Of a DNA stretch of 64,000 nucleotides, positions 2,076-64,000 are shown piece by piece. This stretch comes from Nageia nagi (taxonomy: Eukaryota; Plantae; Pinophyta). The notes under the pieces were generated by a model. That model did no database searches. It was given only the letters and a program-made list of their open reading frames with translations, and was not told the origin of the DNA. Location of the stretch: the NCBI GenBank assembly GCA_050084985.1, contig JBITNC010000002.1, forward strand, positions 3,224,001 to 3,288,000, written 5' to 3'. The stretch's first letter is position 1. Every line of letters starts with the position of its first letter. The position numbers were made by a program, and so were the translations under genes.

Positions 2076-2079
2076 TCTA

Positions 2080-4647: not shown

Positions 4648-4653
4648 CTCTCT

Positions 4654-4693
<40 letters not shown>
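4648..4693. repeat. (CT)n microsatellite in the Copia 3' UTR
   Basis: CT dinucleotide run with one interruption. Confidence 0.95.
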
Positions 4694-17262: not shown

Positions 17263-17302
17263 TGCCCAGGCTTTCAATACCAAAGAACAGTCTTTTAGTT
17301 TC

Positions 17303-17402
17303 CTGTTACCCGGTGAGGCAATGAAAGTAAATATAGAGGGAACGTATGTTCCTTCCAATATCAACACGACACCTCTGATTCGTTTCCCAAGTCGTTACTT
17401 AC
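17303..17402 (-). other. Probable 5' UTR intron of the GH3 gene
   Basis: Minus-strand GTAAGT donor at 17402 and CAG acceptor at 17303, 40 nt upstream of the ATG. Confidence 0.5.
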
Positions 17403-27775: not shown

Positions 27776-27793
27776 TGGTGAACCCGACGTGAA
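27776..27793 (+). other. Primer-binding site complementary to tRNA-Trp
   Basis: TGGTGAACCCGACGTGAA is the reverse complement of the plant cytosolic tRNA-Trp 3' end as I recall it (TTCACGTCGGGTTCACCA). Confidence 0.85.
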
Positions 27794-27864
27794 GTTCACA
27801 TCATTGTACTAAAACCCTAAGGGTTTTAGTTAGGACTAATATCTATTTTGTGAGTGTTTTAGTT

Positions 27865-29082: not shown

Positions 29083-29462
29083 ATCGATATGAAAAAAAAA
29101 AGAGAGAGAAGCTAACAGTCAGTCCAGGTCACTAACAAACGTCATGGTGAAGAGATTGGGAGCTTCATGATGTCATAATAGGAATGTCGATGTTATATTT
29201 CATGTTAATAGGACCGCCGGTGGTCCTCTTTTAGTGGAAAATAGGAGAAAGTTAAAAGGTTCCAATTCCCCCCGCAACGTGAGAAGTCAGAATTGCAGGT
29301 TGTGTCGTTGACGTTCATTTTCAAGAATCATAGAACATCAATTTCATCCATCATAAGCACATATACAAGAGCAATCAGGTACCAAAATTTGTGTTTCATA
29401 TATATATCATGAAAAAAATGTTTGTGTTTACAATACAACTGGATGAGATCACATAGAATGAC

Positions 29463-31734: not shown

Positions 31735-31870
31735 AATGCATAGCATAGCAGCGCAGGAAATATCACCTAGTGACAGCGGTAAAATCACCAACTAGAACTC
31801 TTCGACTCAGGCTTCCAAGCTCTAAGATACTCTCAGCGCTGAAAATGACAATGTGACCAAATGAGGAAGG

Positions 31871-31887
31871 GTGGGGCCCCTTTTATA
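31871..31887 (-). promoter_or_regulatory. TATA box (TATAAAA) with adjacent GGGCCCCAC TCP-like site for the antisense PMD gene
   Basis: Minus strand CTATAAAAGGGGCCCCAC, about 150 nt upstream of the ATG at 31734. Confidence 0.6.
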
Positions 31888-32184
31888 GAAATATTAGGGG
31901 CACACACTTTAAGATAGTTTCAATTTGGGCATTCAGTGTGCATGGGCAGGTAACCAGGTATCAATTTGGAATCCAAGGGCGATTCATCGTGGCCTGATCT
32001 TCACGGTTTTCGATGAATCCTCAAGAAAAGGACCACCTACGATCTCAGTTTAAGACCACCTGTGTTCTAAATCTTACGGAAAGGACCGCCTGCGTTCCTT
32101 TTTCCAGTCAATCAGCTCATCCAAGTATCACAGGTACATCACAGGTGCTTGATCAATGTTATATCCAGGATAATATTGCTTTGA

Positions 32185-32720
32185 ATCAGCTTATCATGCC
32201 TCTTGGTGGAGTTTCAGCTCCCATTTATCAGCTTATCATGCCTCTTGGTGAATTTTTAGCTCCCATTTATCAGCTTATCATGCCTCTTGGCAGAGTTTTA
32301 GCTCCGATTTATCAGCTTATCATGCCTCTTGGCGGAGTTTCAGCTCCCATTTGTCTTGCGGAGTTCGGTTCTTATGCAACTGCAGCATACCTCTTGGTGT
32401 GAAGTTTCAGCTTCCATTGCAGTTGTGTGGAACTTAGCTCTCCCCTATGTGTGGTCATGTGTATGGTCATGGTTATCATGTCTTGTCTTGTGATGTGGTC
32501 TTGTCGAGTTGTTGTCATGCCTCTTGGCGCAGTTTCAGCTCCCATATATCTTGCGGAGTTCGATTCTTATGCAACTGCAGCATACCTCTTGGTGCGAAGT
32601 CTCAGCTTCCATTACAGTTGTGTGGAACTTAGCTCTCCCCTATGTGTGGTCATGTGTGGTCATGTGTGTTGTCATGGTTATCATGTCTCGTCTTGTGATG
32701 TGGTCTTGTCAAGTTGTCGT
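32185..32720. repeat. Tandem repeats in the 3' region of the element: 4 x 42 bp (32185-32352) merging into 2 x about 196 bp
   Basis: Unit ATCAGCTTATCATGCCTCTTGGYGGAGTTTCAGCTCCCATTT; long unit repeated at about 32320 and 32516. Confidence 0.92.
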
Positions 32721-35700
32721 CAGGTCATCATGTGTGGTTAGGTCGTCTGTCAGGTCATCGTCATGTGTATGTGTGTTGTCGGGTTTTGTTGTCATGAGTC
32801 ATCAGTGTTGCGGCAAGGTTATCAGACTATCAGATATATCAGGCTATCACCTTCTATGGCATTCGTATATCAGAAAAAAGATGCAAGAGGCAAGCATGCC
32901 CAAGGTAATATCAAAGGGAGTTTTCTCAACCCATATCTAGTATTAACAAGCTTTGTCATGATTTTTGCTTGAATTTGGAATGGTTAGTGTTTATCATTGC
33001 TTGTCAATTTTTTTGCTATGATATTGTGTTTTTACTTTGAATGCAAAATCTCAATTCACCTCATGTTGCTTTCGATTTCACATCCAAAGTGGGGCATCTG
33101 TTAACACATAAAAATGAATTTATGTTTTTAAATCAATAAATTAATGAAAACATGCTTGGTCTAAATATATGTCTTGAATGTCTTAATGTGATAATATCAA
33201 TGTTTATCTTGAATGTGAATTTTATAATGATTATCTTGAATATTGCATGGATTATCTTGAATATTGCATGAATTATCTTGTTTATTGGTGTGGTTATCTT
33301 GAATGTTGTGAATTAGCCTTGTTTATGTAGATGCATGCCGACCCATGGGTTGTATTATCTATTATCTATATAAATAAGGGATCTAATAGTAAGTCCACAT
33401 ATCAAGGATATACACGATCCCGCATATGGTCTTGTAGTGGCAACCCCTTAAGGTATCTCTTGGTACCGCCTACAAGGCTGTGGTTTGTGTACTTCCTTTC
33501 GTGAGCTATCCTGACATCTACAATCTATTCTGATATCACACTGCTATCTGACACATTCGTATTGAAGTTCTGGACTTGATTGAGAGGTCAAAAATCATCA
33601 AACGAAGGTCATCGGCGCTCCTTTATGAACCAAGAACACCGTCGATGCTCTATTATCTCTGAAACGGACCACCCGCGGTCCTCTTTTTGCATCTTCACAG
33701 GTCACTACATTTTTGGAGGGGCAGTTCATCATCAGTACATCGCCAACATCTTCATCTTTCGTTGTCAGGTACGTTCCGTGAGGTAAGTATACAAATTACA
33801 GTCTTGTTTGGTACAATTACATTTCTGAATCGATTATCTTGTTCATTGCTATTGAGAATAAATTGCTATCCGTAGCTCAAATATAGATATATTGGGTTTG
33901 TAGATATTTACCTGTTTATTTATTTGCACGCTCAATTTTATTTGTAAACACTAAGCATGTTGCGAACTGATCTAGGGCATCAAATAGGTCACGGTACATG
34001 CCAAAAATTCCAAAGATGCACTATTTAAGCAAAATATCACCTCTACAAGCCAACGTCACATCCAGGAACACATTAATCAAACACAACACCTCAATAATAG
34101 TCTAGAAATGCCAACGACTCACTTATACAAGCATGATTACACTAAATTGCTCAACGTTGCATATATGAAAGCATGAACAAGTTAGACACATCAAATAATG
34201 AGATAATAAATGAGATCCAAGTATGCCATGACTCAATTGATGATAGAATGATGAGTACAATATAAACCAGGCTCAAGAGGGCTCAACATTGGCCTCCAAG
34301 GAGCCACCTTTTGTATACAACTATGTAGAGATAGATTTTGTTGTCAAAATTGTTGTAGAACAATCACACTCTACTAGATCCATGGATTCCACACTGAAAG
34401 GCTTCCTCATAGGCTAACTCTCAACAAAGAGAACAAATGTAATTTTGGAATGCCACCAAATGGGTTCAAAGGTGTATACATGTTGTGGACCCCTTAGGGT
34501 AGGGAAACCTCATAGCATTATCACCTCAACCACTAGTCAGAAGGTGTTCCAAGCCTCCTAGACTCTCCTTGTGCACTACACTCAAGGGTACTTAACACCG
34601 CCAAGTCTTGAATAGTAAGAGGGGTTTCAATATCGAAATAAATTCCATCTTTGCAACGAGACTCCTTTGCCTTTATAACATTTCTATGGATTTGGATCTC
34701 ACCTAGGAGTCATCCCCAACCTCCCCAATCACAACGTTAGCTCTTGGAGGCCCAAGATATCCAACGTGGGTGCTTAGGGATCAAGCATGCCCAACATGGG
34801 TACCAAGAGGCCATAAATGCCAACATGGGAGTCCAAGGTACCATGCATTCCAACATGGGAGTTCAAGGAACCACGTAGGTATAGGAGCCATGCATGGGTG
34901 CTAGGGTGTCATCATGGGCCAACGTGGGGGTCTAGAAGCCTCCCCAAAGTTGGTGCAAGTGCTCAAGCCCATCGCTGGGTTCTAGGTGTCCATTATGTTA
35001 TTTTTGATGTTACATGAGGCTTGGGATTCCCACAATCATCTTAGGATCTCTAATTGCATTAATGATAAATTAAAAAACACATTCTAGCTTGGGAGGAAAA
35101 TGTCCCTCGTGGGGCTCACAATATGGGTCCAATGGCCATTATATTTCTATCCCAAGTAACTAACAACAAATACATGAATAAATAAAAATATTTACAAAAG
35201 GGAATCCTTAGGATTTCAAATTTATTTATTTTTCAGAAAAAGGGGATCTTACACTATATGATGTTAGAATGACATTACTTAATAGTATTAGCTTTCCATT
35301 TCCCTCTCATGTTGCATTTTTAGCTTAAAGCATAGGGAATACTCTCTCAACTTCTCATTTTTTTATTTCATTCTTTAGAGGGATCTATCACGAGAGCAAA
35401 GAAGAAGCACAAAGATGTTCCATTGCATCAAGGTTTGCTATTTATGTTTTATAAACATACACTCATCCAGGAACCCACTCTAGATACTACCCAATTAGAC
35501 CTTGAGCCCACCCCACATTGGTATACCTTTAAGTTAGATGAATACCTTAAGGATCATATCCTACTTGCCAAGCATATGAAAAAAGGTAAAGGTAAGAGCA
35601 CAACTAAGAGCAACTAAGTGTTAAGCACAAAAATAAACAAGTCTTTCAATCAACCGATGTCCTCGTCCACTACACTTGTAGATGATCCATTATCCTCAAC

Positions 35701-37963: not shown

Positions 37964-40900
37964 ATGGCTATGTTATACAACTACGTCCGGACCCCTGCTC
38001 CTGCAGATTGCGGGGTCTCATCGGGGTCTCTCAGCGCGGAGAGGAGAACGCTGCTAAATTTAGTGAAAGTTGGCAAGCGCGCTAAAATTTTAAGCAGAAA
38101 TCGGGGCTTTGGATCGAGATTGTTTTTTGGAGATTTTGACTGTAAATTAGCCTTCAAAGATTCCACCAGACCGGATCGATCTATAGCCGCGGCTTTGACA
38201 GAACAATTTATCCCTGGTAAAAGCTCTGATTCTTCGGCTACGTCATTTACCACAACTTTTCCTCTGAAAAGGACCGTAAAGGTAGGCTTTGCTTTCTGAA
38301 ATTTACGGCAAGCAGATAAAATTAACCTTTTTCTTCACTTTTGGTGAGCTTAAAGGCGTTCTGAATTATTTAATTTTAAAATTTGTCCGTCTATTTAACA
38401 GGTAGATGGAAAAATTGCGGCAAAGGTGGATTCTGTCAAGAAAGACGGCAAATCGCGGCTCGTTCTGGAATGTCACATTCCGGGACGCTGGGTGCTGCAC
38501 TGGGGGGTTACTTATTGCGAGGATCCAGACAGGTTTTATCTTCTGTTTATGAATTTATTTATATTATGTCTATTGGACCCTGTCAATAATATAATTTTCT
38601 TTTTATCGATGAAGCCTAATCCTAGCCAGTAGAAGGAGGACTGAACTGAACTTTATAACATCACTAATATGGGGAGTTTTGAACCTAGATACACGTTGGA
38701 GAGTTTTAAACCTAGACACTTAACCTAGACATCATATACCTTCTTTATATATTCAAGGGCATGAACCCATAAGTGATACTTATAATAGTTTTGAACCTAA
38801 TACATGTTGAAGAGTTTTGAACCTAGGTTTCTTGAGAGTTTTTACACCTTAAAATCTTAATACACTCTTCACATACCTTTTTTAAATATTCACGGGCCCA
38901 AACCGATAAGTAATACTTATAGTTTGAGAAAAGGTCCAATGGATAGATACATATAAACATCAGCCTATACATATGCATAAATCATATAAACTGTAGAAAC
39001 CTTGATAGAATTCAGTAATTAAGTCTTGTCTTAGTTTCCCTAAAATATTTTGGCTAGATTTCCCTCCTTTGCGTCTGAGACATCGCTAGATCATGTACCT
39101 TCTTATTCCTAGAAGAAGAAATTGTCTAGTTCTTAAAGAAACACTAAGGATCTTTACGTATTTCGAACATTCTTCTTTTCTCATTATGTGAGGGCTAACA
39201 GGTTTAAGTACTCTTACTTTACAAGCTCTAGTTCGTGAAATCTTGAACAGCTGCACTCCAACGAGCTATAATATAACCATAAATCTCATAAGGCCAGGGC
39301 TAGTATGCGAGGGTTTGAATGATCTAGGTCCAAATCTAAAGGGCAGAGCTTGGATTTATGTTGTGTATTGTGTATAAACTATGAACTTACCATAGACAAT
39401 TTGTAATCTTTAACCGGTATCTAAGAAAAATCAGGTTTTGAGATCTTAAAAACAACAATCCTCTTATTCAACAAAGGATTCACAGTAGCCGTGTCATCAC
39501 CAGTTAAGGATCTGTATAAGATATTCCTAATTTGTATTACACCATATGTTCTTTTACAATTATAAATTTGGAATTATTGACCTGGGCATTGAGTTAAACC
39601 CCAAATCATATAGAAAGCTTTTTGAGGTGCACAAAATGTGAGACTATTGAGATTAGAGGGTTGGGTTGATCCAGCCTACACTTGGCCATAAGCCTTGGGT
39701 CATTAAGATTGCCTACCTTTGGTGACCTGTGAATTCCTTGCTGGAGATTTCTTCACAGCTGAACTTTGGACTCGGGCACCTTAATAAAGTATGGATTAGC
39801 ATTTGAATCCTAAGCCCCATCAGCTCAAAGTCAAAATTAACTTCTATTCTTTTTAAACTCTAATATTAATTTGTGCAGTTGTTATTGAGTACATCATAAA
39901 CTATAATTAATATCTGTTCATGGTATATATTCAACAAATGGATAAACCCAGCCTGATATGGTATCCTAGGGCATAGTGTCGCATCTTGCAGCTCTAACTT
40001 GGAGATACATGAAGAGAATATGACTGAACATTGCACAAGTTTTCTTTGATTTTATATTCATGAATGATAGAAAACTTCTTGGTTTCTTATTACCAATCTT
40101 CATTAAAATACAAAACTCATATACATACATTGAAACAAGAATTGGTGAGGTGGTTTCTGGGGTATTGTGGACCAGGGGATGACAAAATTCATATACATAA
40201 TTCTTCATATTTGAATCCTATAATTACTGGTAGATTTTTGTCAAATTAGTAAATCTGCATATGTATTTAGCTCTTTGTATAATTCAAGAAGCGAAGGCAT
40301 ATTGTCGTGATAACCTTATGGATATTAAAACTAAAACACTATTTTATGAGTATGCAAATGTTCTTGCAGAGTCCTAAGGGTTTCCTCTTTTATAGCAATC
40401 CAAAATTCAATAAAATTGGAACCGATGGTGCATTTGCCCAATCTGCTCTCTTATTGCAATGGGCCAATTAAAAGTGTAGCAATTGAATGCTAGATGAAGT
40501 ACTTTGAACAATCTGCTCTCTTATTGCAATGGTCCAATTAAAAATGTAGCATTTGAATGCTAGATGAAGTACTTTAATGAAGGCATAATTCAGAGGAAAG
40601 ATGAGAGGTGATTGTGCATTGATAACCCTGGACTCAATAAGATCACAGTGAAACCACTATCTTTCATAATGTTTTCCTTAATCATCTTCAAGGTGCCAAG
40701 TTCTTCACAAAAATGGATTTGATGGCTAGATGTTACTGAATTCACATGGAGTCTTGTTTTATCTTGAAGATAACATCCAAGACAAAGTTCAGGCTCTACA
40801 AATGGCTGTTTATGCCATTTGGACTCATTAATGTAGCTACTACTTTTATGTGCTTCATCAATGATGTTGTTCTATCGTGTTTGGGTAAGTTTGGTAAGTT

Positions 40901-43900
40901 TTTTGTTGTATTTTTTGATGATATTTTGATTTTTAGTAGGCCATGGCTAGAGCATTTGACACATGTCAAGATTCTTTTGGAGCTTATTTGTTAGCATAAG
41001 CAGTCAAAGATGAAGTCATCATTTGAACAACAATCAGCTAAGGACTTCTGTTCCTCACAATGGAGTTGGGATCCAGGTAGATCCAGATAAAGTTGGAGCC
41101 CTCGAAGACTACCACAACTTAGCACCATTCTTCAATGAAAGAGTTTTCTTGTATGTATGGGCTTGTAAAAGAAGTAAATTTTCATATTAACGATTCCCTT
41201 CATTAACTTACCAACAGAAAGGCTCTTACTTGGCCTCAAGCTGATCATATTTTCCAATGCCTCAAAGATGGTTTATGCTTATCATTTGTTCTTTCATTTC
41301 CTGATTTCCAATAGCCATATGGAATTGAACCTAACAATTTGCTATAGGCACAGTTCTTAAGCATTGAGGACATCTAATGGCCTGTCAGGCTAAAAATTAT
41401 CCTAAGCGAAGCTTAAATACAACACTGGTGGCAAAATATTCTTTGTATTGATCTAAATACTTAAGCAACTAAGTCACTTTCTCCTTGGGAAAGAAGTAAG
41501 CTTGCACATAGATCACCAATCCCTTGAGTTCATGAATTCTCAATAAAAACTTCAAAAACATTGACACATCAAGTGAGCATTTTTTAGTCAACAATTTCAT
41601 CCGGTCATCAAGTGGAAGGAGGGTTCCTCAAACAATGTAGTAGATCTCTTGCAACCTCCTCTAAGCTTTTTTACCGTTTTAAACAGTCATTGTGCAGCTC
41701 AAGAAGACTGCAAAGATCTATACTCCTTTGATCCATGTTATGAATCTATAGTTGCAGCATAGAACCAACTGGCAATGGTTAAATAGGCTCTTTTCTTGAT
41801 CACTATTTTGAAGAAGCCTTTTTATATCACACTAATCGGTTGTGTTTCAGTGGGATGAATCTGCAACAGTCTACTAAGAGGAACCTGTTGGGGGTTTTTC
41901 TTTCCTACCTTGCTGATGGTCAAATGCATGCAAGGCTTGTGGGAAAACTCCGACACCTGAGTTGTAGGGCGTTACCCCTACCCGCTATGAGGACTTTACC
42001 TCAAAGGTTTGGAAATGGAGGGTACAAGGGTTCACTCAGGCGAAAGGGTGGAGATGTTTAAAGCTGTAGCCAACACAAAATATAATTTTGTTAATCAAGG
42101 ACTTGAAGGTTTTCCAATCCAAGTACAACCGTTTCTAAAAAAAAAAAGGGAAAATAAAACAAAGAATCTGTTGCGAAAGCCGTGCAAAGAAAACGAAAAA
42201 GAAAGAAAAGATGTGAAAAGACAGTGATATATGAGTTGGGCTCTCAAGCTAAGTTTTCACCGATTAATACGATTTTGTGAATAGAACTTGTGCGAGTTTG
42301 ATTTAAGTTCCACGCACCCCGATTCTGGCTCGAAAGGCGATGACACGAACGTTTTGACGAGAGGAGCTTGGTGCTAAGGCAATGAAAGAAAGGTGAGGCA
42401 TGGGTAAGACTCAATCCTGGGGTGAAGTTCTTATGCTAAATGACATACACAAGTCATCTTACAAACAAATTAATCCTGAGTGCAAACTATGAAACATCAC
42501 AATGAAACATTTCTTGAACTATTTCCAAAAGATATGCAAGCATTCTTTTATCCACCCATTAGGTTTATAAAATGATCCAAATATTCAAGATAGCATTCAC
42601 ATGTAATACTCATTCACATTCATAGTCTCAAATGAAAACCAACTCACTTCAATTACTTGAGATAAATCACAATTGCGAAAAGGGAAAACTCGTAAGTTTT
42701 AGAGTATTATTTTAAGTAGTCCCAGTTGCAAAAAATGTTTGATCTTTACAAATGAGCCCAAATGGGCTATATATAGTTTTTGAGCAACCCAAAGTGTTGC
42801 CCTAACCCTAATTATGATTTCCAAGAAAATCAAATATGGTCCAACAAAAACATGCCACATGGCATCATAAGATATCCTCCAAGTTTGTGGGAGCAAATTC
42901 TCATCCATCACAAAATTGGGAATTTATTAACAATAAATTAAAGTCTCCAAAAATAACCATGAAATAAATAGTAAATAAAAGACAACAAATGTTGTGACTA
43001 GGCAGTTGGTGGGTCCAACGCCTCCACACGTCTCTCAAAGTCATCATCCAAGAATGTGGCCGTGAGCTCCAATCCATGTAACATTTTTGACAGCTTCGGC
43101 CCATTCTTCATCACACTGCGCTCTACCTTGTTGATGATCCTTATCATGTCCTCCCATGCGTGGGCTTTGAGCAAATGCTCCAAGTGACTACCTGTTTGGA
43201 AAGTATTAATATCCTCGATCATGATGAGACTGTGAAGGAAATGTCTCACTTCCGCCACTACAAGTTCTTGTTAGAATTTGTAATGAAATATTGTGAATAT
43301 CTAAACTCCTTGTAAATTCAATTAATCACTTAAAGGATATGTAGATACCTTAAGGGATTAATTGAATTCTTTATTATGTGTGGACTTTGACCTAACCATG
43401 GGGTTAGTTGGTAGGTTGAAGTTAGATCACACATTTATTGTAACCCTAACCTTACCCTTGGGTTAAAGGGAGGTTAGGGAGGTACTCTAAAACTATAAAT
43501 AGAGGGCCTCTCCTCTTGTAATTCACATCTTAGATTTGGAGTAACATTACTCTACTAGTTTAGGAGAGAGGAAGAAAGAATTGTTGTAAGAGAGGCATAG
43601 TTGAGAATAGAGAGCTAGTTGTGGATGTACTCCCAAGGAGGGAGGAACCACATTACATTGTGTCATATTGTGTGAATGGTGTTAGTAGCTTATTAGATGT
43701 TGAATGATGAATGATTTAGCTTCCTAGTCTTAGGTCCTTGAGAATTAGATCTAGGCTAATTCCAACAGTTCTTTGTCACGGATGCCTGCATCGTCATCAA
43801 TGAACTTCACCTGAAACTCCATCTAATCAAGAAAAGTGTTTGCCTTGTCATTGAGCTTTTGAAACTCCTTTTGCATCTCCTGGAATAGGGTGGTTATGTG

Positions 43901-46900
43901 GTTAACTACCCCCAATTAGAACCAATATACCTCACAAAACTTTATATCTTCTAGTCTCCGATTTCGTATCATCTCGAACTGCATGATCATGGGCCGCCTA
44001 GAATCCAGGATCCGAAGGAAACTAGTTCTCTCCATGATGACGTCCTTGAGCTTTTTTTTTCGAATGCTATCCTCTCTAGTGCTTCAATGGATTGTTGCAC
44101 TGCCACCAAGACCTCATCTATATGCTTATTCTTTACTGCAATCATACCCTCCTTTAGCGGTTTGATCTTTTGGTGCTCTTTAGTGGGTACCTTAGCTGAT
44201 TCCAATTCCTTGGTCAATATCCTTTGTGTGGCTAGCTCCTTCTTGAGGCCTTCGATCTCCTTATCTTTCATCATACCATCTTTGGTGATGGCCTCAACGT
44301 TGGAGATGATTGCATGTTTCTGACCAGCCAGACCAATCGGACCTGTATTGATGATTTGGTTAATTTGTTGGAGGTCTTCGGGACATTGTGGATTCTCCTT
44401 ATCAGCTATAATGGTCTTGATGTGTATAGCGTTCTTAGCTAAATGCACATATGTCTGGGTTTTCCCTGGACGGGTGGACCTTTCTTCAACCTAGTTGTTT
44501 TTCTCTTCCGCCCTAAATTCTCCTTCGACATCCATATTAAACACATCTAAACATTCTTCCATATTGACACACCTGTCATTCGTGGGTGATGGCTGATAAG
44601 TGTCCACAATTGCCTTTGGAATAGTAACAACGTTCTTCTTTACTCTTCTTGAGGGTCTCTCTTCTCCTTGCTCAGCATGCTCACTTGAGGCTCTTGTAGC
44701 TTGTGATTGTGGGGTTCTCTTTAATCGGGTCCTCTTTTGCACTGTCTTGGATATTGGCTCCTTGTGCTTCTCAATAGATGGCTTTGTCGCTGATGCCTTA
44801 TGGGTTTCTGCCAATATCTCTACAGATTCATCTTGTTTCTGTGCATCTGGCATTTCCTCATCTTGGGTTGCATTCTCTTTTTGTTCTTCTTCTGATGCTC
44901 CAATCTCCCCTTCCTCTTGATTTTCATCAGGCTTATATGAGGGGTTGGAGGGTGATGATCCGGATGGTGGAACAACTGGTGACCTCCCGATTGTCGTGTT
45001 CCTAGGTGGTCTTGGAGATGGAGAAGGATCTTTGTGTCTGTTTCTCACGCATCTCACCACCTTGTTTGTAGATACTCGCTCTAGTTCCCTTGCATCATGC
45101 TCATCCATGGTGGCTTGCACTTGTTGCACAACTTGTTTGATTGGCCTTTAGCCTCGCATGGGCACATATTGTCCAACTGGTGTTTCAACAACTAGAGGGA
45201 ACTGTGTGACTCTGGAAGTAGACTCCTGAGGTTTTCTTCGCTTGTGCTGCGAGAGTCTTTTACTGATAGTAGCTTCAACACGATGTTGCTAGTCATTTGC
45301 ATCCTTGTGTACCCTTTCCCTTATCTTCTTCATCTCTATCTCATTGTTGATATTCTAGAAAGGCTCCTCGTCTACGAGTGACTTATGCTTATAAGGTTTC
45401 TTCCTTTCCTTCATGAAGAATGAGTGCATTCTATGATCCAGATCATAATGGTTGGCAATAGGCATCTTCTTGAAATTGAATTTGGCCAACTCTTCTTTCA
45501 TGGTTTCCACATCCGTACAAAACTTGCACTGATATTCTCCTACAGCAATCGGCAAATTGGAGGTAGCCGATTTCTTCTGCCATACCTGCTTGTTTAGAAA
45601 GGCCAACTGCCTCATCATCTCCATTAATAGCATCCTGTTACTCACGAATCTTGGCAATTATTAGGGCTGGATGGCTGATTCGTGTATACGAATGTACGAA
45701 TAGTGTTGGTGATGGAAGAAGAGGTCCCCATGTTTCTTCAAAGCATCTTGGGCTGAATTGGAGATCCTAGCAACTGTGATCTCTCCCTTAAGTTCTTTGT
45801 ATATTTCATACTCCCATCCATCATTTATCATTACAAAACTATCCCATCTCCTTTCCAACTTCCATTTGGGGTAGCATTTCCAAATGGAATATGTCCTTTT
45901 TTCTATCCAAGCCGTCTCACCCTGAGCTGTATCTCTATACTTGTCATGAAGCAACATGTACATGAGGTATGAATTGAGGTAGAATTTACGAGTGGTACCC
46001 AAGGATGACAATTGATTAGCTATGGAGTTGCTTAACACGTTGCTCCATTTAATTCTCCTCCCTTTGGTGATCTCTAGGATGAACCCAACGAACTCTTTCC
46101 TAAACTTTGAGGCGTCTTCCTTCCCAAGGATTCTAGACAACAAGAGAATAATCAACTCCATTGCAGAATAGAAGTTGGAGTGAGGAGCATTGATAAGTGC
46201 ATTTCCCTTCAATCCGTGATGCTCCTCCAACATCCAACTCTTGACAACGACGGCTGCTTTGGGGTCTCTTGGTAACAAGCTAATGATCTAGCCTCGCTAT
46301 ACTCGACTTCTCCTTCAGCAGTCCACTGAAATGCTGTTTTGATGGCATCCGGGCTGAAATCCATTATGATGTCTCCTTTGATACCTCGAAGGACTCTCTC
46401 CCCTTTTTGCCAAGAGTGGCCAACCTCCATGCATAATTCAGGAAATGGAGCTGTGAATGGGACTAATGTACAAGTGGAGAGTCCGGAGAAGAAGACGATA
46501 TCTTTCTCCAAGTCAGTGATAGGAAGACCATGAGTGCCTTCTCTCATCTGCGTAGGATCAACATTTTGCCAATCTGCATCTTCGATGGTTGCAAAACCGT
46601 TTCTCAAGAGTTTAGCCCTTGGGGAAGGGCTTGTTGTCTCTCACGAATGGAGATGACACAATCCTGTTTCAATTGCTCGAGATCCCTATCGAAGTCTGAA
46701 GCTGAATTACCCTTAGAAGTCATGATGTTTTTACTAGCAGCGAGGCTCCTCAAGAGTGCTGTGTGGGTTTCCAGGTAAAGATGACATCCAAATTGGAGGT
46801 TCTTGCCTTCCAAATGCTTGCGCAAGCCCTAAGGTGGATAAATGATGATGTTTGAGCACACAAATTTGCAATTTGTTGTTGTCCTAGTGCAAAAGTAGAA

Positions 46901-49900
46901 GAGGAGCAAGTTTTGAGTTTGAGAAAATGAGGTCGTGAAGCTTGTATTTATAGCCCATTTGGCTTCCAGCTTGCCCTAGTCTACTAGGGTTACTAACATA
47001 ACTCATCATAGCCCTCCACCTGGCCGACCTTGAGATGTGTGCCGACCCAAAAACTCGTACCAAGCTGCCTGTGCCCGAACGTTTGGGTTTTAATATTCAA
47101 CTTGGCTTGGCGCATGGGAAAAAAAGACAAAAAAGTGACTTTTTGAACCATGCGCCAACCTTGGGAGCTTGTATGCTTCCAACGTTGGGTATCTTGCCTT
47201 CATGTTTGCTTGCCTTGATCGCCTAACTCACCCAGTAACCTGATTTTTCCTGATTCCTGGTCTTTTAGTCGGCTGGACTTGTCAATTTTGGCGTTTCATA
47301 ACTTGTGGACTTGACTCATGGTTCAAAAAGTCAAGTTTGTGACTTTTTGAGGTATGTGCCAGCCTTGCCTCTCCATCTAGCCTGGTCGCATCGTTCAAAA
47401 AGACAAGTTTTTGTCTTTTTGAAGCATGCGCCAGCCTCCAATTGGCCTATTTTTCCAAATTTGATTTTCAAGTGCTCATGCTTTAGCCAAATTTTCATGT
47501 TTCTTGAATCTTGGAGGCTCCATGGGCTTGGCACATGTCTCAAAAAGTCAAGATTTTGTCTTTTGAGACCATGTGCCAGCCCCTCTGGGTATACTTGAAT
47601 TAGTTTTGAGTTTCGGGGTTCGGGACTTGTCAAATTTTCACCTTTGCTCAAACTGGCAACCTTCCTAGGCTTGGTGCATGGTCCAAAAAAGTAAGATTTT
47701 GTCTTTTTGAAGCATGCGCCAGCCTCCTGGGTGGTTCATGATCATTTTCCAACTCTCATACTTGCTCAACTTGTCTTCTTGACCAAATCGCATGGTTCAA
47801 AAAGACAAGATTTTGTCTTTTCAAACCATGCGCCAACCTTGTAGTGCCTTTGACTTAGATTTTTCATGTTCACTTTTGCTCCACTCTACTCCCCGTGTTT
47901 GGCGCATGCCCAGGAAAGACAAGATTTTGTCTCTTGGAGGCATGCGTTGGGCTTGCAAGTGCCCAAATTCCATCCTTGAGCTTTTCCTTCATGAAGAATG
48001 ACCCCCAAGCCCAATCGCATGGTTCAAGAAGACAAGTTTTTGTCTTTTCAAACCATACGCCAGCCCTTGGAGAGGCCCAGTTCGCTTTGATCGGGCTATG
48101 ACTCTTCCTAGACTCCCTAGTTCACCTAAGATCGACTTTTACCCTTCTCAAACTTAGCCCCTTTTAAAGATTTTGGAAATCCTATCTTGACATGACTAAC
48201 CCTAGACGAAGGAAGAGGCTTGAACTATAAGTTGTCCATGAATCTGGGTCTTTGAGACGCAACTTGGGTGGAATTGATGATGACAAAACAAAGTATATAC
48301 ATTGACGCATTGAGGGTCCCCAAAATTGCAGGATTTTGGGGAATGTTGTGTTTCAGTCACAACAGAACCCATTCACCATTTCTTCTTGCATCTTTGTTTG
48401 GTGTGCTATTTCTTTGAAATGGGTATCTCATTCTTTGCCTCTAAAAACGAGATTTGTTTTTTAAGCTTTTTTGGAGTCACTTTGGTTTGCAATTATTATC
48501 ATCTCTGATTGTGAATTCCTCTATTCTTGATTAATATTTTACAATCTATATGGAATTTACCTATATGTCACTTATATTTCTCCACAACCTATCTTTTGCA
48601 AATTCACCCTGACTGAGATTATCAGTTACACCTTAATCCATGCTCGGCATTTATCATCAGTAAAACAAATATTGGAATGATTATCTACACATTCTAAACC
48701 ACAGTAATAATTGTTAAAGTATGCTATTCATGATTTGGTCTGTAATCATAGCCACCTAAAATGAATTGGAACAATAAATTCACAATTACAACAAATTGCT
48801 GAAATACTCTTTAAACAAGTTTGCTTTTGTAAGAAAAATAGAACCATAAATTCTGACTTTATTCAAATTTACACTCAATTAGTGTGGCCTTGTTTGTTTT
48901 GTTACAAAAGTGGGAAGCAATCATAAGAAAATGCATGAGAGGGGGCACTCCTTAGTTAATCATTCAGTTAGAATGCAAAACTAATCATGAACTGAGCTCT
49001 AGCTTGTCGTGGACTGAACTGATCTACAAACCAGAAGTGAGACTAACTAAAAATGCTCCTATACATGGTCATGCATGGTCTTCTTTGGAATTAACACAAC
49101 TCCTAAAACATGCTGACGGTCCTTAGGTGACTAAGAATTCAGCTGAACTGAGAATGAAGTACATGTGAACTGTTCACAACTAAACGAGAACTGAAATTAC
49201 AAAGTTAGCTTATTAGGTGCCAACTAAGTCAGCTGGATCTCTCATTAAGTGGCACATGATAGGAGAATTCAGACTCTGATCCAACTTGGTGTCCACAACG
49301 TGTTCCCAAGCACATTTTCTTGCCACAGCTTGCTGTGCTGGAGCAACACAAGGCAGCTTTTGAACTGTCTATGATTGAAGGCTGTTGCTGTTGGTCTTTA
49401 AGTCATAGATGCCATTAATCAGTCAGAAAAATCCAATTCCTTTAGGTGGAATTGCATTGATGACAAGCTTTCATGTAAAATTCAGAAAGTCAGATTCTTT
49501 TGAAATCAGAAAGAAACATAACTTCTAGTATAATACTTTCGTGAATATGGTTACATCTCTTGTAAGAATCTGAGTAAATTTTATTATTGCAGTGAATGGG
49601 ACAAGCCACCATCTGACATGCTACCTCCAGGCTCAGTATCAGTGAAGGTACATTTTAACATATTTTTTCTTATGGAGTTAAAATGATTGTTTAGTTTTCT
49701 CTGATCATTTGAAATTCTTTACAAAAAAACATATTAGTCATTTGTGTGCAATTGAACTAAAATTTTATCTTCACTGTCGACATAGGATTATGCAGTACAA
49801 ACTCCATTGCTGCAGCAAACATTACCAGCAGGTCAAAGAATAAGTTATGTGCAATTTGACATCAATGATACTGATTCTATTGCAACAATTCAATTTGTTT

Positions 49901-50152: not shown

Positions 50153-51532
50153 GCCAGATTTTAGCTTTCTATCATATTGCAAATGTTAATTTAGTTTGCT
50201 AAGTTTCCATGAATGTTTCAGAAAAAAAATTATTAGTGCTGGAAGAAGAATATACATCAAATTAAAAAAAAAAGGTTAGAAGGAATTTTGAATTCTGCAA
50301 AGGCATGAACGATGTTTTCAGATCAATCACCCATGCCTAGCTTAGAAGAACCGGTGGGGATGAAGGAAGTTAGGTCAGAAGAGCTTGGTTGTCTTCATAA
50401 GTGGCTCATGGAGAATGTTTCAGGTCAGCATGTACCTCTCATGGAAGTTCCTCAGCAGAGGGAAAGTGGTGTGTCATTGGTCTGTCAGGGAAATAGGGGT
50501 CATCATGTCCAGTTCACTTAGAGTTAAAGATCTGTAGGAGAGTCGCTGAACTTGAAAAGTCAAGTAGCAAGAGGTAATGCATATGACCCCCTCAAAAGTG
50601 CCTGTGGATCTAGGGGGTGTGCTAAAGGATTCAACTAAATAAGTCTCTACTCAAGATGTCCCAGATTCGAGAGAGAAGAATTTGGGTTGGGTGGATCATG
50701 TGAAGGGTAGTAAGTCTCCAATAGCAGAAGGAAGGGAGATTAAAATTTTCATCTCTACGAAACAAATGAAGAAGGGATTGTTCTATGAATTTTATAAGAT
50801 TCTAGACAGGGCCTAGAGCATAATGGGTAATAGTTTGATTGGAGAATTCACTAGTGCTGGACCATCCATAGATCAGATTAAGAAATGGGCAAGCTACAAT
50901 TGGAGAATCAAGGGACATATGTAGTTCTCAGCTCTCTCTAGAGGCTTTTCTTACAGTCTAAAAATATAAAGGTAGCTTCTATTTGGGTAAAACTTATGTT
51001 GTGCCTGCATAACACACAGGCAATGAGGTGCATTGCTTTGAGATTGGCTTTTGGTAATGGATAGTTCATTTTGAAGAGTGCAAACATGATATCAGGGAGC
51101 GATTCAAGGAGATCTTGCGACGAAGATCCTAAAGAGTATCAGAGTATTCCGTCACCAATTTTGCAGCCAAGGAGCCAGGATTTGAGAGACAACATCAAAG
51201 CACGAACTTTTGGGTCTAGAGTGCAGACAATGCACATCGGGTAGGTTTTGCAAAGTTTGAGCTCACAAATGTCAAGTATGACAAAAAGGCGTGTTTTTGC
51301 AGGATTTGAGCACAAAGGTGCCTAGGTGAAAAAAGACGAGCGTTTTTGTCAAGTTGGAGTCCGAGTACAGTGAATATGGCTAAGATGACAAAAATAAGTG
51401 TTTTTGTCAATTTTGACCCTGGAAAGCCGGAAAGAGCAAATGTGATAGAAAATATGCATTTTTGTCAATTTTGAGCTCGGAAGTGGTCATTAAGGCAAGA
51501 ATGTGCATTTTTGCATAGCTTGGACCCAGAAA

Positions 51533-51660
51533 GCTCGAAAATGGTCAAAAATGCAAAGTTGAGCCCAAAATGCTCGAAAATGGTCAAAAATACAAAGTTG
51601 AGCCCAGAATGCTCGGAAATGGTCAAAAATGCAAAGTTGAGCCTAGAATGCTCGGAAATG
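51533..51660. repeat. 39-bp tandem repeat (about 3.3 well-conserved copies, degenerate copies nearby)
   Basis: GCTCGRAAATGGTCAAAAATRCAAAGTTGAGCCYARAAT. Confidence 0.9.
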
Positions 51661-51999
51661 CTTGGAAAGTGCAGTTTTGGCAGGGAATGCACATAAATGT
51701 TCGGTTTTGATCAGAAATGGTCGGAAATGTAGAGTTTGAGCTCTAAAGTGCCAAAAATGCCGAAAATTATTGTTTTTCAGAGATTGAGCTCGGTGTTGAC
51801 CATAAATTTCGGAAATGACCATTCTTCAAAGTTTAAGCTCGGAAATGGTGGATAGCGGTCCGAAATGCACAAGTTGTGTCCAAGAGCATAGTTTGAGGAT
51901 TTTGGTGATATCAAAGCTCGGGTTTTGACACATAGCTCCCAGGAATGGCAAAATATGAAAATTTTTCAAGAGACAAATGCAAATGTTATCGAAAATCAA

Positions 52000-53800
52000 G
52001 TCTAAGAGCATCCTTGGAGAGATAAGGTTATTTCTAACACAATTAGGACTTGAAATTTTTGATTTTGACCAAGTTTTGAGCCCTCCAAGCCTGGGCATAG
52101 TTTTTCAAGCCAATGGAAATCCATTGAGGTGTATTTTGGCGCCTAGCTACCAAAGGGAAAATGAAATTTGTCTCGAAAATCAAGGGAGATGGTTTGATTG
52201 CATGTAAAATCCCATTCTAAGGCACTTTAGGTCTACAAATTTTTGATTTTGACCAATGGAGGTGCCCTAAAATCCTAGGCGCAAGTTTCCAAGTGATTGG
52301 AAATCCATAGACTTGCATTTTGGCGCCTAACTTGAAGGAGAGAAATAGATTTTGACCAAAAGACCAAACCAAAGGCACAAATTGATGGAAAAAGGGGTTT
52401 CAAGCACATTTAGGTCTTCAATTTTCCAAATTTGAGCAAGTTTTCAGGCTCAAAAAGCTAGGCGCATGTTTTCAGATGTATGGAAATCCAATGGAGTGAT
52501 TTTTGGCTCCTAACTTGGAGAGATAATTGCAAAACTCAACGAAAATAAATCCTAAGGTGCTTATTGGGTCAAAAATGGCATTTCTAGCACATTTAAACTT
52601 GCAAATTTTCAATTTTGAGCAAGTTTGATGGCTCAAATTCCTAGCCACAGTTTCCCATATTTTTCTAAATCCAATGGAGTGATTTTTGGCGCTTAACTTG
52701 GAGAGATAAGTGCCAAACTCAACAAAAATAAATCCTAAGGTGCTCATTGGGTCAAAAATGGCATTTCTAGCACATTTAAACTTGCAAATTTTCAATTTTG
52801 AGCAAGTTTTATGGCTCAAATTCCTAGGCATAGTTTCCCATATTTTTCCAAATGCAATGGAGTGACAAATGGCGTCTAAAATGAAAATTTGAGAAATTTT
52901 CATCAAAAATCAAGTTTGGGGTGTCCATTAGTTGAAATTGAGCATTTTGAACACATTTGGGTCTTGGAAAAATCAATTTTGAGCACTTCTAAGCACCCTA
53001 AAGGCTAGGCGCAGGTTTTCAAGGCTATGAAAATCCAAAAAAATGAAAAATGGTGCCTAGGATAAAACAATTTCACAAATTTTGGTCAAAACACAAGTTT
53101 GATGGGTCAATTGGGTGCAAAATGTGATTTTGAGCACATATAAACTTGCAAATTTTAAATTTTGAGCAAGTTTGATGGCCCAAATTTCCTAGGTGCAGGT
53201 TTGGGGCTGATTAAAGATCCATAGGACTGAATTTTGGCACCTAGGTTGGAAAACATTGATAGATTTCACTCAAAAATGAAGTTTGACCCCTTCATTGCAT
53301 AGAAAAAGGCATTTCTAGCACATTTAACACTTGGAATTTTTGATTTTGAGCCATGGAAACCCCTCAAAAAGGAAGGCGCAGATTTTCATGCCATTGGGAA
53401 TCCATAGACCTGAAAATTGGTGGCTAACATGGAAGAATGTGAAGATTTTGCTTAAAACTCAAGTTTTTTGACATATTTGTATGGAAAATGCCATTTTGAA
53501 CACATTTAATACTTCAAATTTTCAATTTTGCACAACTTAAAGGCACCAAAAAGCTAGGCGCAGTTTTGCATGTGTATGGAATTCCAATGAGGTGAAAACT
53601 AGCGCCTAACTTGAGGAGGATTGACAAATTTTGCTCAAAATTCGAAAATTTTGCCTTCATTGCATATAAAATGACATTTTAAGCAACTTTAAACTTTGAA
53701 ATTTTTGAATTTGAGCAAGGTAAAGGGCTCAAAAATCTAGGAGGCATTTTTCATCCCTATGGAAATTTCACTTTTTTCTATCAAATGAAATCCATAGACA
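52000..53800. repeat. About 183-bp tandem array (about 10 diverged units) inside the solo LTR
   Basis: AAATCCA-type anchor recurs at about 52117, 52301, 52484, 52667, 52850, 53032, 53215, 53399, 53580, 53762. Confidence 0.85.
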
Positions 53801-55799
53801 TGAAAATGGAAAAAATTGCCAAAATCTCAAATCCTTCATAAAACCTCCTAAAAAGTTCACAAACCTCTCAAAATTTGCCAAGTACCTTGTAATTCCATCC
53901 TTCATCCATCCATAAACTCAAATCCACTTTTTAATTTTTTTTTTCTAAATTTTAGACCTCCACTATTTTTTTCAAAAAATAGACCAAAAAATCCACTTTT
54001 TTGAAAAACTCTCTTAGAATCCTTTGAAAATTTGCCACAATGATCACACCATGGGCAAATCGAGATTCAAAGAAGGAAGGAGCTCAAAAGACTGTTAGAA
54101 GGATCTAAAATGAGGATTTGAAGCTCCAATTTTTGACAAATTGATGCAAAATGCCTCGAAATGCATGCTAGAGGGCATCAATTTTTGTAAATATTTTATT
54201 TGTAGCATATTTTAATGGGATGAGATTGTTCTCCCACTAAAACGATATTGTAATCTCAATTTAGCATTCAAATTAACATTTTAAAGCTTTTTTATGGATT
54301 AGGGCAACACCATCAAATTTTGACCTAAAAAGTCTATAAATAGACCATAGGGGGTCACATTTTGAGGTAGAATGTTGTAGTCCAAATTTTTTGTAATTGG
54401 GGAGCAAATTGATGTACTCATGCAAAACTCTTTTACAAACATAATACAAATGGCTACAAGTTGATTCAAAATGTGTTTTCATCTATGCTAGTGGTGGATT
54501 GATTTTTTAGAACGTTTTCTATAATTGAAACATTTTCGTGCCTTCTCTTTGAAAACTCACGAGTTTTAGGAGAATTTGTTGCAAAGTTTTCAAAAATATT
54601 TGAATTGTTGCTAATTCATCACTTGCTTGTTAAATGCTTAGTATTCTGAATTGACTTTCTCTTAAGACATCTTCCTAGATCTTTTGTTCAAAACTATCCA
54701 CCTTCACTCATGCTTAGTCCACTTGGTTGCATTGGCCTTGTTCATAGAGTATCGATAATTAGTTCCACTTCTCGTTCATCTTTGGAATGATTGGAAAATA
54801 GTCATTCATTTCAAAGACTTGATTGAATTGAACAAGATTTCTTACCTGATCCGAGAGAGAGAATGTTTAAACAATGCTGCATTGTGATTACCTCTTTGAA
54901 GTCTAGCCAGTATTTGGCCTCATTCTTGCTTTTTCTTTTCTTTATTTTACACTTTCTTTAAAACTTATGGCAAATTTCGAACTATTGTAATATAACACAC
55001 CTCAATCCTTACAAAAAACGTGAGTTGACAGTTATTACCTCTACTACACCACTCAGCTGATTCCCAAACAAGACCTACAAATTTAAAGCTCATATTAACA
55101 ACACGAGTTTTCCGATAGAAACCTTGGGGTATCAGTCCTTACAAGAGGAGTTCAGTAACGCGTTCTCACCCACATGCTGGGTTGCTTTCCCGTCTTGATC
55201 GTATGGGCGATCATCGAGTAAGAGGAAAGGTTTCCTTCCCAACAACTTCATGCACTACCTTTGGAGTTTTGGGCAAATAAAATCTTTGAAACTATGGGCA
55301 ACAATATAGGAATTTTTCTTTCGCTGGATTATGCTACTAAGGAGAGGAAGAATATGTTCTTCGCTAGGTTGTGTTCGATTGGACACGATTCTCTTCTTGG
55401 AAAAATGGTTTGAAAATAACTTAACATTTAATTTTGAAACCGTTGCCAAGAATAGGTTTTGATTACAACCCTCTACTTTTTTGGTGCAGTTTGCAGGATA
55501 AATAGTTTTATTTGCCTTTCAGATTTGAATTTATGTGGTTGCACCACTCAAGTATATTTAAAGAAATGGAAAAATGGTGGAGTTTATCAACCCAAGGAAC
55601 TAAAATACAAATCCTATCTAACAATTTAAAAACAATAAAGAAAGAATTTGAGAAATGGAACATGGTTGTCTTTGGTAACATCTTTCAGAAGAAGAATTCT
55701 ATTTGGTTGGAATTGGATAAAATAGAGGAAGAAGTCAGTAAGATAGGTATGAATCAAAGTCAATATATGAAAAAAGGAGCTAAATGCCAAATTACATAC

Positions 55800-57618: not shown

Positions 57619-59550
57619 TGTTGGAAACCTAATCCTTAGGGATTAAGGTTGAATGTAAATAATTAGATTTAGGTGTTATAAGTGTATGTGTGAGAAAATA
57701 TTTTATATATATGTATTTTTGGATTTGTGTTTTGGAGGAATTCCAAAGGTCATAGTAAGATGAAGTTGTAGAGTCTTTAGGCAGTTAAAGAGTCTCTTGA
57801 GGAAGGTGAAGTGATAAGCCACTTTTTCCTCTATCTATGAATGTTGTATTGATGTAATACATGAATTTTGGAGTTAATAGAATTTGGATTTGCAAACCTA
57901 AGAGTGGGCCTTATAGTGGTATTAGAGCTTGGCTGTGCCTAACAAAGGACTAACAACCTTTGCTAGACCATGCTAAGATCTTACATGGGGAATTTATTGG
58001 TTCTCCATGTGAGTTTTTCTTGCAAATTTGAGTAGACTCCAATTTTTCATTTTTGTGCATAACTTTTAATATGTTTATCTGTTTTCCATTTTGTGAAAAG
58101 TTCTTGATACCCATTTCCATTAAATTTGTAGTGTTAAGTTTTTAGGAGCTTCCACATTTTGTATCTTCTGCTGTTCATGGGGTTTTTCTCTTCCTTCTTC
58201 ATGGGTGAAACTACTATTATTCTTCCTACTATATGGCTTTTTTGGTGGTGAATGTTGGGTTGTTTTATGGCTAGTGTTCTGATAGCAATGCCATCTCAAC
58301 CCAAGTTGCAAATTTGCCTCTTTTTCATGCACTAGAGTGGTTGTTTCGTGCCAGATTGTGAAGAAGCACAAGAAAAATTTGTGTTGTTGGAGGTGGAAGA
58401 TATTTGTGATAACTATATTTGTTTGTTTGATTGTACGTTCCTAAAATATTTCCTTGCTGGTGGCTGGTTTATAAATCCGTTTTTGGTACATGTTGTGGAG
58501 GCCAATGCCAAAGTATTGCAGCTCGTTCTTGTGAACTTCGTGATGGTGGATGTGAAGCGACTATGTGACTTGCGTATAGATTTTTGGTGTTTTGCTTGTT
58601 CATGGTCGTCATTTCGTATTCCACATCCTTTCTGACCATTGACCGTGCGGATCGTTTGGATCTTGTGGAGAGTGGAGACTTGTGTACATTTCTTGTTTGG
58701 AGCCCCAACTACCCCACCATTTAGCTATGTACCTAATGGGCAACGTGAATACTGGTTTACGTGTCATCCCCACCGTGACCAGTTCGTGCCAACTCATTGT
58801 CCACATTGATCAATTTGGGCGCCCTAAATTTTATCGCCAGCCACTTTAATTTTTGAATAATTTGGTATTTTTTATAATATTTAAATATTATGGTTTTAAT
58901 ATTTAAATTTTATTATATTTAAATATTTAAAACTATTAATATTTAAATTATTACTTTTATGCCAAATTATTAAATATTTAAATTTTTTTTGGAGGACATC
59001 ATTTCTATTGCCTTTATCAAGGTGTCCATTTTAATGATGTCCTTTGTAAAAAGATTTATGTTGCAATATTTTCACCCCTTTGGATTAAGGGGGAAACTTG
59101 GGCTTAATCCTTGAGGTGGACCTTTTGAAGGGATTGCTTATTTTTTTTGTTGGGGAAAAATGTTCTACACACCTTGAGACACATCTTTATATTTATTTTT
59201 TAATCCCTTTTGGACTAAGGGGGGCTGTTGGAAACCTAATTCTTAGGGATTAAGGTTGAATGTAAATAATTAGATTTAGGTGTTATAAGTGTGTAGGTGT
59301 GAGAAAGTATTTTATATATATGTATTTTCGGATTTGTGTGTTGTTGGAATTCCAAAGGTCATAGTAAGATGAAGTTGTAGAGTCTGATAGTAAGATGAAG
59401 TTGTAGAGTCTTTAGGCAGTTAAAGAGTCTCTTGAGGAAGGTGAGGTGATAAGCCACTTTTTCCTTTATTTATGAATGTTGTATTGATGTAATACATGAA
59501 TTTTGGAGTCAATAGAATTTGGATTTGCAAACCTGAGAGTGGGCCTTACA
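57619..59550 (+). mobile_element. Non-coding TRIM/LARD-like LTR element (LTRs 57619-57915, 59226-59550), TSD CTTGT
   Basis: LTR pair TGTTGGAAACC..GGGCCTTA(C/T)A; iMet-type PBS TGGTATTAGAGC 57917-57928; PPT AAGGGGGG; the 1.3-kb interior has no retroelement ORF. Confidence 0.93.
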
Positions 59551-61316: not shown

Positions 61317-64000
61317 TGTTGGTATGTTTTTCTTTCCTCGCCCAAAACATGCACAAGACTTGGAGGAAGCAACGTTACTTGTTTTCGCCTGAAAGGACTA
61401 GTTACCCCTAGCGATCACATGGAATATGGTCTAGGGCACAGTGGTCAGAGATGCATGTTGTTAATCGTATACAAGGGAAATACACCGTCGGGATTCGTTT
61501 TCCACAAAAGAGGAAAGACTGCAAATGTGAACGAAAGCAAAGAAAGATCACAAATGCAAGGATAAATGCATAGGAATGTGAATAATGAACTTATGAAGAT
61601 ATCACCAATGATGCAGTGTCTCAGCATGTCATCTCCAGATTCATTAAAAAAATGTTTCACTTATCAAGTCGGGCAATAAATAGCAAAAAGTTCAAGTTAC
61701 TACCGGACAAGACGAGAGCAAGAAGCTGTAGGGTCTTGATGGAAGACTGGATGGAATAGGATGAAGGGAAATGACCAACATGTGAATACATAATCTAACC
61801 GAATGACATAGAGATTAGCTATATGCCCTAGAATACATTCACTTATGTGCAAACCATGCAATGAATAATTTAAACCACTTCGAAAGATATTCAATCAGCT
61901 TTTCTTAAAACTCGTAGTTTGCAAAGAATATGAACTTAAGCAATAAAAATCATTCAAACTAGCAAGAGAATCTTACAGGGTAGGATGCATGTCCCACAAA
62001 TGATAATCTTCACAGCATTTGCTTTACAGAACCATTCCAGAAAGAAATCAACTTTCAATGATATTCAATAATGTAAACAAAAGCATTCCTTTCTTGATTG
62101 CAGTACTCTCAGTATGATATTTAAAATGAAAAAGAGATATGACAATATGCATCCATGATATGCAAAGAATCCCTTATGTAGCAAATCCTTATGCAATTCA
62201 ATAGTATGCAGAAAATATCATACATACAATCATATGCCAAAAATCCCCTTCTAAATAGCTCGAATCGAGTATAAATACGCCACTAGAAGTGTTGCCCTAA
62301 AGGCATCAAATCTGATATGGTGTGCACACATACAACACACATACTGATCCAAAATATGATTGTTCACACAAAATGATGCAAGTGGTATTTAAAGCTGACA
62401 AAATATAAATGCCACAACTATAATACATTTATTTATCTCTAACCTATGCAAAAGAAAATCAAATATGCAATAAATGTTTGGATTCTGAACCGACAGGAGC
62501 AAAAACCTCATCCCTGCACCGGTTAGAACCATTAATAAGTTTGACAGATTTGATTTGGTGGGAGCAAAACTTCATCCCTACACCAGTCAAATCAAGTAAA
62601 TAAAGTCTGAGTACAACACCAACCACCATCAATATGCATTAATTAAAGAAAGATTATTGCAAACAAAATCTGCAAGTGGATCAGATCTAGGCCAAATCTG
62701 ACCCGGTACCGGCGGAGTTCCACTCCTTGTTGGTGAGACCGTACGACTCAATGGTTTCTTCCAAGAACGCTATGGTCTTATGTACTCTGGAAACCATGCT
62801 GCCGTTTTGCTAGAAATAGTCCCCAATCTATTTGGACGTAGCCTACATTTGGAATATCTAGATGACCATCTGCCTTTCATGGATGATAGGATGCCTTAAC
62901 TTTAACAAATTGAAATCTTCGACATCTAGATGCTCTTGGATCAGGTTTTGGGCCTCTGCCAATACTGCTTTCTTGCGCACACTGTTATCCTCCCTTGAAA
63001 TCTGAGTTGGTATACATATCCTCTCATTTGCTCCTCTACTTTTCTCAAAGTGTTCTGACTTTCAGAACAACATTGCACTTCTCGAGTGCATGCTTCAGCC
63101 AGTCGTGCTGATACATAAACTCATGGCAGTAGACCAATTTTTCGGGTTTGTTAGCAGAGATTTGCTATAAATGGGTGACATTTGGGGAGATAACCATCCA
63201 ACTTCTCAAGGTTTGCCGTTATCTAGGACTTTAGTTCCTAGATTCCAACACCTTCCTCAAAGAGGCTATATATTTGAGAAGATAACTTCTCAATGGTCTC
63301 CATCATCTCCTTCAGTTGGTCCTTCATCAGCTCCCATCCTTCATAAAACGAGGCTTGTTTCTTCAGGTTGACAAGGGTAGTGCTAGTGGTCTAGAACTCC
63401 TTAATAATTTTCCTGCTAGCCGTGAGTTCCCTTTTTAGCCTCTTCACATCCTTCTTAGCTTCGTAGCGTTCCTGTTCCATAACAACGACATTTTGGGTCA
63501 CAATGTGCTTACGGGCTGTCAGTCCCAACTTGATGGGCACATTAAATTTCTCAATCATGTAGTCGTTGGGCCTCTGAGGATGTTTCTCCTTGGAGTAACA
63601 ATGATTGATGGAGATCTCTTTTCGAGTAGTAGAAACAAAAGTGTCAACAAATCTAACCTACTCACCATCGGAAAGGTCCTCTTCTTCATCCTCAGATCTC
63701 AAGTCCTGATCTATTTCTTCATCATGAGCCATACTCATGCCCAGGGCTCTTAGGCAAGCATTTAAGTCAAGATTCGGATGTTCGGTTGTTGGCTTAGGAG
63801 GGAGCCTCTGCACCAACACTCGTCCTTTGTTGATCTTCTTGACTTCTTTGGTAGGAGTGGTTGAACGAGGGCAATTTCCCTACCCTGGTGCTTGTCCTGC
63901 TTTCTCTTCTTTTGTTTTTCTGTCTCCTCTTCATCTTCTTCATCTCCGCCACTGCCACTAATAGATATGCCTTTCTTTCTTGGCTGAGGGGATCTTTAAT
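61317..64000 (-). mobile_element. Second gene-containing giant LTR, truncated by the window end
   Basis: Starts TGTTGGTATGTTTTTCTTTCCT, like TGTTGGGGGTTTTTCTTTCCT at 41886; no PBS follows on the minus strand; contains a homolog of the 42998-46723 ORF. Confidence 0.75.
62690..64000 (-). pseudogene. C-terminal part of an LTR-embedded ORF homologous to 42998-46723
   Basis: EKHPQRPND..GLTARKHIVTQNV..KRLKRELTASRKIIKE aligns with KENPQCPED..GLAGQKHAIISNV..EGLKKELATQRILTKE; VRKKAVLAEA..VEDFN aligns with IRDKELVVAEV..IEDIN. Confidence 0.78.

Follow-up and report, generated by a model that had tools for sequence, protein, structure and literature searches.

Can a plant long terminal repeat (LTR) retrotransposon carry a gene inside the LTR itself, so that even a solitary LTR keeps it? 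The question is raised by a 6,479-bp unit in a 64,000-nucleotide stretch of Nageia nagi DNA (contig JBITNC010000002.1, positions 3,224,001 to 3,288,000). This whole stretch is the window, and coordinates are counted within it. Our answer, held with slightly more belief than doubt, is that the unit is a likely solo LTR of an Athila/Tat-type element with giant LTRs, and that it carries a palindrome array and a broken, once-selected gene whose product would have acted against silencing. Relatives of the unit were eight loci (L001 to L008) from one metagenome-contig scan (581 pattern matches). The parts of the unit are as follows.

41886..48364, minus strand: the whole TG..CA unit, 6,479 bp, likely a solo LTR, its direction taken from a promoter box and distant relatives
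41881..41885: target-site duplication (TSD) GAACC, left copy
48365..48369: TSD GAACC, right copy
48300..48364, minus strand: conserved 5' terminal motif, common to L001, L003 and a short copy in L007
41886..42000, minus strand: 3' terminal region conserved in 8 copies from at least three families, with the ending GGAAAG..CCCAACA
47110..48060: 8 imperfect ~46-bp palindromes upstream of the TATA box of the open reading frame (ORF), candidate sites of a dimeric protein
46945..46952, minus strand: TATAAATA box, likely the ORF promoter, from sequence only
42998..46723, minus strand: broken ORF of ~1,072 codons, with 8 stops, 3 frameshifts and a nested insert
43269..43767: solo LTR of 499 bp from another family, nested within the ORF, which it interrupts, and flanked by a GTTCT duplication
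42767..42805, minus strand: TTAGGGCAACAC box and TATA-like box, 890 bp from the end, likely the main LTR promoter and possibly two-directional

The first-pass annotation had proposed a TGTTG..CAACA unit with a perfect 5-bp TSD, and this held: TGTTG starts at 41886, CAACA runs up to 48364, and GAACC lies flush against either side. Alone, this duplication is weak evidence (two random 5-mers match by chance with p=0.0014, and scanning the whole window for TG..CA pairs with such a duplication turned up 14). The position of the ends does not depend on it, because contig depth covered all 30 bins of the unit and dropped at both ends in all four runs (left of 41886 it was zero in three runs and near zero in the remaining one), because the L001 and L003 alignments begin at base 1 of the unit, and because L004 and L005 terminate on the same terminal motif. 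As had also been claimed, we found no further copy of either end within the window and no gag/pol inside the unit. The sequence directly before it (39500-41885, plus strand) is a decayed gypsy reverse transcriptase/RNase H sequence, so the unit was likely inserted into an older element. At L004 103-107 and at window 41881-41885, which are different insertions, an identical GGTTC (element strand) directly follows the end, by chance or by target preference.

The ORF runs from 46723 to 42998 in five pieces, with frameshifts at about 46610, 46290 and 44050, and spans 1,072 codons once the nested insert is removed, in line with the long decayed frame of ~1070 amino acids described before. Its coordinates and decay had been given correctly, but the nested solo LTR, which contigs skip in three of four runs, was missing from that account. 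The product has a folded N-terminal domain (~450 aa), an acidic low-complexity middle and a likely helical C-terminus. An env-like test for a transmembrane helix found none (19-residue hydropathy peaked at 1.51 for the pieces in the window and at 1.79 for one piece of a homolog).

The gene has been under purifying selection. For the N-terminal domain, dS was finite in 8 of 36 pairs, which gave dN/dS values of 0.05-0.24, and the other 28 were saturated at silent sites; for the C-terminal part, two of ten pairs were finite (0.13 and 0.38). Since these ratios are low and yet all nine copies carry 2-6 stops in the regions compared, we infer that the gene was selected while the element was active and decayed after insertion. 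A profile search returned 353 relatives at E<=0.001, mostly fragments; among ten whose names were looked up, two were called 'hypothetical protein' and eight had no name.

Upstream of the ORF, the palindrome array gave 15 half-site matches against a shuffle mean of 0.035 and a maximum of 1. The pattern was built from the unit itself, which makes the excess there partly one of construction, but not its conservation in L001 (7 copies) and L003 (6 copies). L002 has one copy near the contig start, and inspection by eye shows a variant palindrome in the short copy of L007. The pattern had no match in L004-L008, of which L004-L006 are without most or all of the region. These palindromes are likely binding sites for a dimeric protein.

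Two further regions of the window belong to the comparison.

61317..64000, minus strand: second ORF-bearing relative (family B), truncated where the window stops, with the C-terminal part of the ORF, the promoter box and a CCAACA end
50997..55244, plus strand: distant relative that lacks the ORF and has arrays (39-bp and 183-bp), the unit's promoter box and a duplication agreeing at 4 of 5 positions

The location of the gene inside the TG..CA unit proved to be a family-wide trait. The alignments of L001 and L003 start at the first base of the unit and run on, past the array and the promoter, into the ORF (69% over 3.2 kb and 61-63% over 3.5 kb, respectively). The L005 alignment covers the ORF, the second promoter and the CAACA end, and L004 has the same run once two exact overlaps are taken as misassembly. 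L006 and L007 show 47% and 35% protein identity (query domain) and the same order of parts, and region 61317-64000 matches the L006 protein (tblastn E 9e-20) and is 76% identical to L003 154-2817. Across the family, the array, the promoter and the ORF follow one terminus in this order, and a promoter box then stands about 0.9-1.0 kb ahead of the other terminus. In five copies, the stop lies 175-404 bp before the TATA-like box (stop positions of two of them are off by a few bases) and the box 873-1,030 bp before the end; neither a TGTTGTG start nor a long purine run was found between stop and box in any of the five. At L003 2817-2849, 31 bp separate a family-B end from a family-A start of the same direction.

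Some derivatives keep an array and lack the ORF. One, inserted in the ORF of a family-C copy, is a family-A copy of ~1.7 kb (L007 1-1688, minus strand) that begins like family A and has a short array and the 3' part. The other is 50997-55244, earlier called a non-coding relative: it shares the terminal motifs and the TTAGGGCAACAC+TATA box with the unit and nothing else, there is no blastn alignment between the two and its duplication matches at 4/5 positions, but it does align at 62% to the distant family of L007. We read both as deletion derivatives.

Regarding promoters, both boxes of the first-pass annotation are present: TATAAATA at 46945-46952 on the minus strand, and the second, placed at about 42770 and some 885 bp from the LTR 3' end, at 42767-42776. 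The direction of the unit is deduced from the TTAGGGCAACAC box and from the families that read CTATAA(A/G)TA toward the near end, and it is from the TATA-like boxes only that the gene would be placed in U3. The TATA regions at 42757-42776 and 46945-46962 are 18-bp inverted twins; facing each other across the ORF, such twin promoters could produce antisense RNA.

For the identity of the protein, the idea of PMD or another plant accessory fold had weak profile and fold leads but no Pfam match at gathering score (PMD, Transposase_32 and ATHILA ORF-1). Atlas leads to Transposase_32 and ATHILA ORF-1 were weak (0.80-0.83), as was hhalign against one PMD sequence (E 0.24). DUF1985/DUF287 were absent from the domain scans and from the 25 of 45 families listed for 128 members. 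The functional lead is a weakly predicted VANC-like fold together with the palindrome array. According to PMC5735166, VANC proteins bind short motifs in dense tandem arrays of their own elements, leading to methylation loss.

Altogether, this copy probably arose when a full two-LTR element was inserted and LTR recombination left one LTR, the gene lying in U3 and being kept by every LTR. An integrase would have inserted the element with its two giant LTRs, and recombination between them would have produced the solo LTR. Because the gene would lie upstream of the main promoter, both LTRs and all solo LTRs would retain it. The gene product would then bind the adjoining palindromes as a dimer, and the bound protein would keep the LTR promoters methylation-free, on ORF-less copies too, in trans. 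That the N-terminal domain has a VANC-type fold with these activities is a prediction to which we give somewhat less than even credit. Doubtful is the wider proposal that a sequence-specific anti-silencing gene and its target palindromes moved into the LTR, that each LTR, even a solo one, became a self-sufficient module shielding itself and ORF-less relatives from methylation, and that a VANC fold is common to the unexplained plant accessory ORFs.

Several observations weigh against this interpretation. By eye, in 30-40 flanking bases, no primer binding site (PBS) followed the 3' end at any of eight termini and no polypurine tract (PPT) preceded the 5' start at any of five, and each of the two complete units stands single between its TSD copies. 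Such a pattern (0/13 PBS/PPT, singles) has a likelihood of 0.04 if the solo:intact ratio is 2.8, of 0.13 if it is 5 and of 0.32 if it is 10; the ratio of 2.8 comes from a Cupressus preprint (10.64898/2026.07.23.736688), and solo formation is commoner for longer LTRs in angiosperms but not in spruce (PMC5751070, PMC7251063). Read in the opposite direction, the second box of family A is as good or better, the fold match of the N-terminal domain to VANC21 (PDB 9lnk) is weak, with 6% identity, and the array of this dead copy shows no relief from CG depletion (0.40, vs 0.43 in the ORF). The bare termini would suit a self-contained TG..CA element with one accessory gene, moved by a borrowed integrase or transposase and not half of a two-LTR element; likewise, no parental gag-pol adjoins any of the eight loci and no family-linked pol was found. 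We consider such an element rather improbable. The LTR interpretation has a lead of its own in a loose end with PBS-like letters 5 nt past CA, where 10/13 letters of the Asp/Asn PBS core of Athila recur if a 2-nt gap is allowed, in a mixed consensus noticed post hoc. It is one of four terminal loose-end rows (3 contigs, agreement 0.76), and random window DNA reached its score in 0.00046 of draws, or 0.002-0.005 counting ends. A spacer of 5 nt is within the 3-6 bp described for Athila (10.64898/2026.03.20.713144), and Asp/Asn types belong to Athila and TatII, Arg/His to TatIII.

It is very improbable that the true LTR is short, with the ORF internal and this copy a deletion derivative. The ORF-less L007 copy, with its ~1.7 kb, gives this explanation its model, but that copy is more simply explained as a deleted one. 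The start-to-ORF contiguity of L001 and L003 and the ORF-to-end contiguity of L004, L005, L006, L007 and 61317-64000, across families with saturated silent sites, and the shared order, with no LTR start or PPT between stop and promoter in the five copies, largely refute it; the double-deletion case set out beforehand does not fit. An LTR in the other direction, with a ~0.9-kb U3 from 41886 and the gene antisense in a very long R/U5, is hardly credible either. The second box of L004, L005, the short L007 copy and 61317 does read TATTTATA in the assumed direction, which is TATAAATA reversed, and the inverted twin in the window agrees with it. However, the homologous box of L006, L007 (family C) and 50997-55244 reads CTATAA(A/G)TA toward the near end, and no PBS lies past the other terminus. 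Also unlikely is an LTR with the gene inside whose protein has another role, for example in targeting, in chaperoning particles or in handling RNA, while host factors or RNA structure would be what the palindromes serve. The weak VANC match and the CG depletion of the array favour it, and what such accessory ORFs do in plant retrotransposons is, according to PMC7264820, yet to be worked out. The solo LTR with an anti-silencing gene is still the explanation we prefer, and its termini, TSD length, arrays and size fit Athila/Tat (OTA) elements.

Retroviruses have short coding sequences within the LTR (MMTV sag, HIV nef overlap), whereas the gene here has ~1,070 codons, its own promoter and an unrelated sequence. 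Like this family, OTA Ty3/gypsy elements have a 5-bp TSD, very long LTRs, tandem arrays and a conserved accessory ORF. Their LTRs reach about 5 kb, but the classification of their extra ORFs puts these into the internal part, on the 5' or the 3' side of the polyprotein (REXdb; PMC6317226); here the ORF is inside the 6.5-kb TG..CA unit and has no Pfam match. Grande gene23 and Retand TRP28 are also accessory genes with their own promoter beside tandem arrays, and DNA binding was suggested for TRP28; these ORFs are antisense, between pol and the 3' LTR, in contrast to the inferred sense direction inside a terminal unit here (PMC7264820, PMC11963269). Unlike the likely solo LTR, VANDAL21, the element of VANC21, is a DNA transposon that encodes a transposase of its own, and its motifs form 8-9 bp direct arrays (PMC5735166), whereas here the candidate sites are ~46-bp palindromes. 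Gypsy elements encode PMDs (PMD-A; PMC5418596), and the host PMD proteins MAIN/MAIL1/MAIL2 bind motifs and oppose Polycomb silencing (10.1101/2024.09.27.615353). The PMD family joins retrotransposons to anti-silencing host members, but has no significant sequence or profile match to this ORF. Reviews and surveys put plant accessory ORFs in the internal region (PMC7264820, PMC11963269), literature searches, which did not cover one key survey, found no LTR-internal one, and the available text of PMC13477047 and PMC11539532 describes no such units.

The surroundings are plant DNA rich in repeats, among them copia, chromovirus-like and Tat-like elements. Host gene pieces at 14038-17394 (minus strand) presumably resemble family 3 glycoside hydrolase. 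Copia elements and a gypsy element with ~270-bp LTRs lie at 1322-5214, 22971-26076 and 8487-12917; the copia elements have opposite directions and are 77% alike. A Tat/Ogre-like element at 26922-33950 has 852-bp LTRs (97.5%), a PBS-like site, gag, a 42-bp array and an antisense PMD ORF (about 29800-31150), with no pol seen in it, and is likely a non-autonomous gag+PMD element; a further PMD fragment is at 20965-21402. A short repeat pair 1.6 kb apart (57619-59548) encloses a 138-bp AT-rich palindrome and adjoins another degenerate array with a TATA box (59900-61300).

One gymnosperm pipeline requires LTR pairs within 15 kb (PMC13477047), and therefore likely misses elements with 6.5-kb LTRs, leaving their gene as a host gene or an unknown repeat. 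In this family, a candidate protein is encoded right beside its candidate target. A gene inside the LTR would be doubled with each transposition and would outlive the recombination that normally strips an element of its coding capacity. If the predicted function is true, the repeat would bring its own defence against host silencing.
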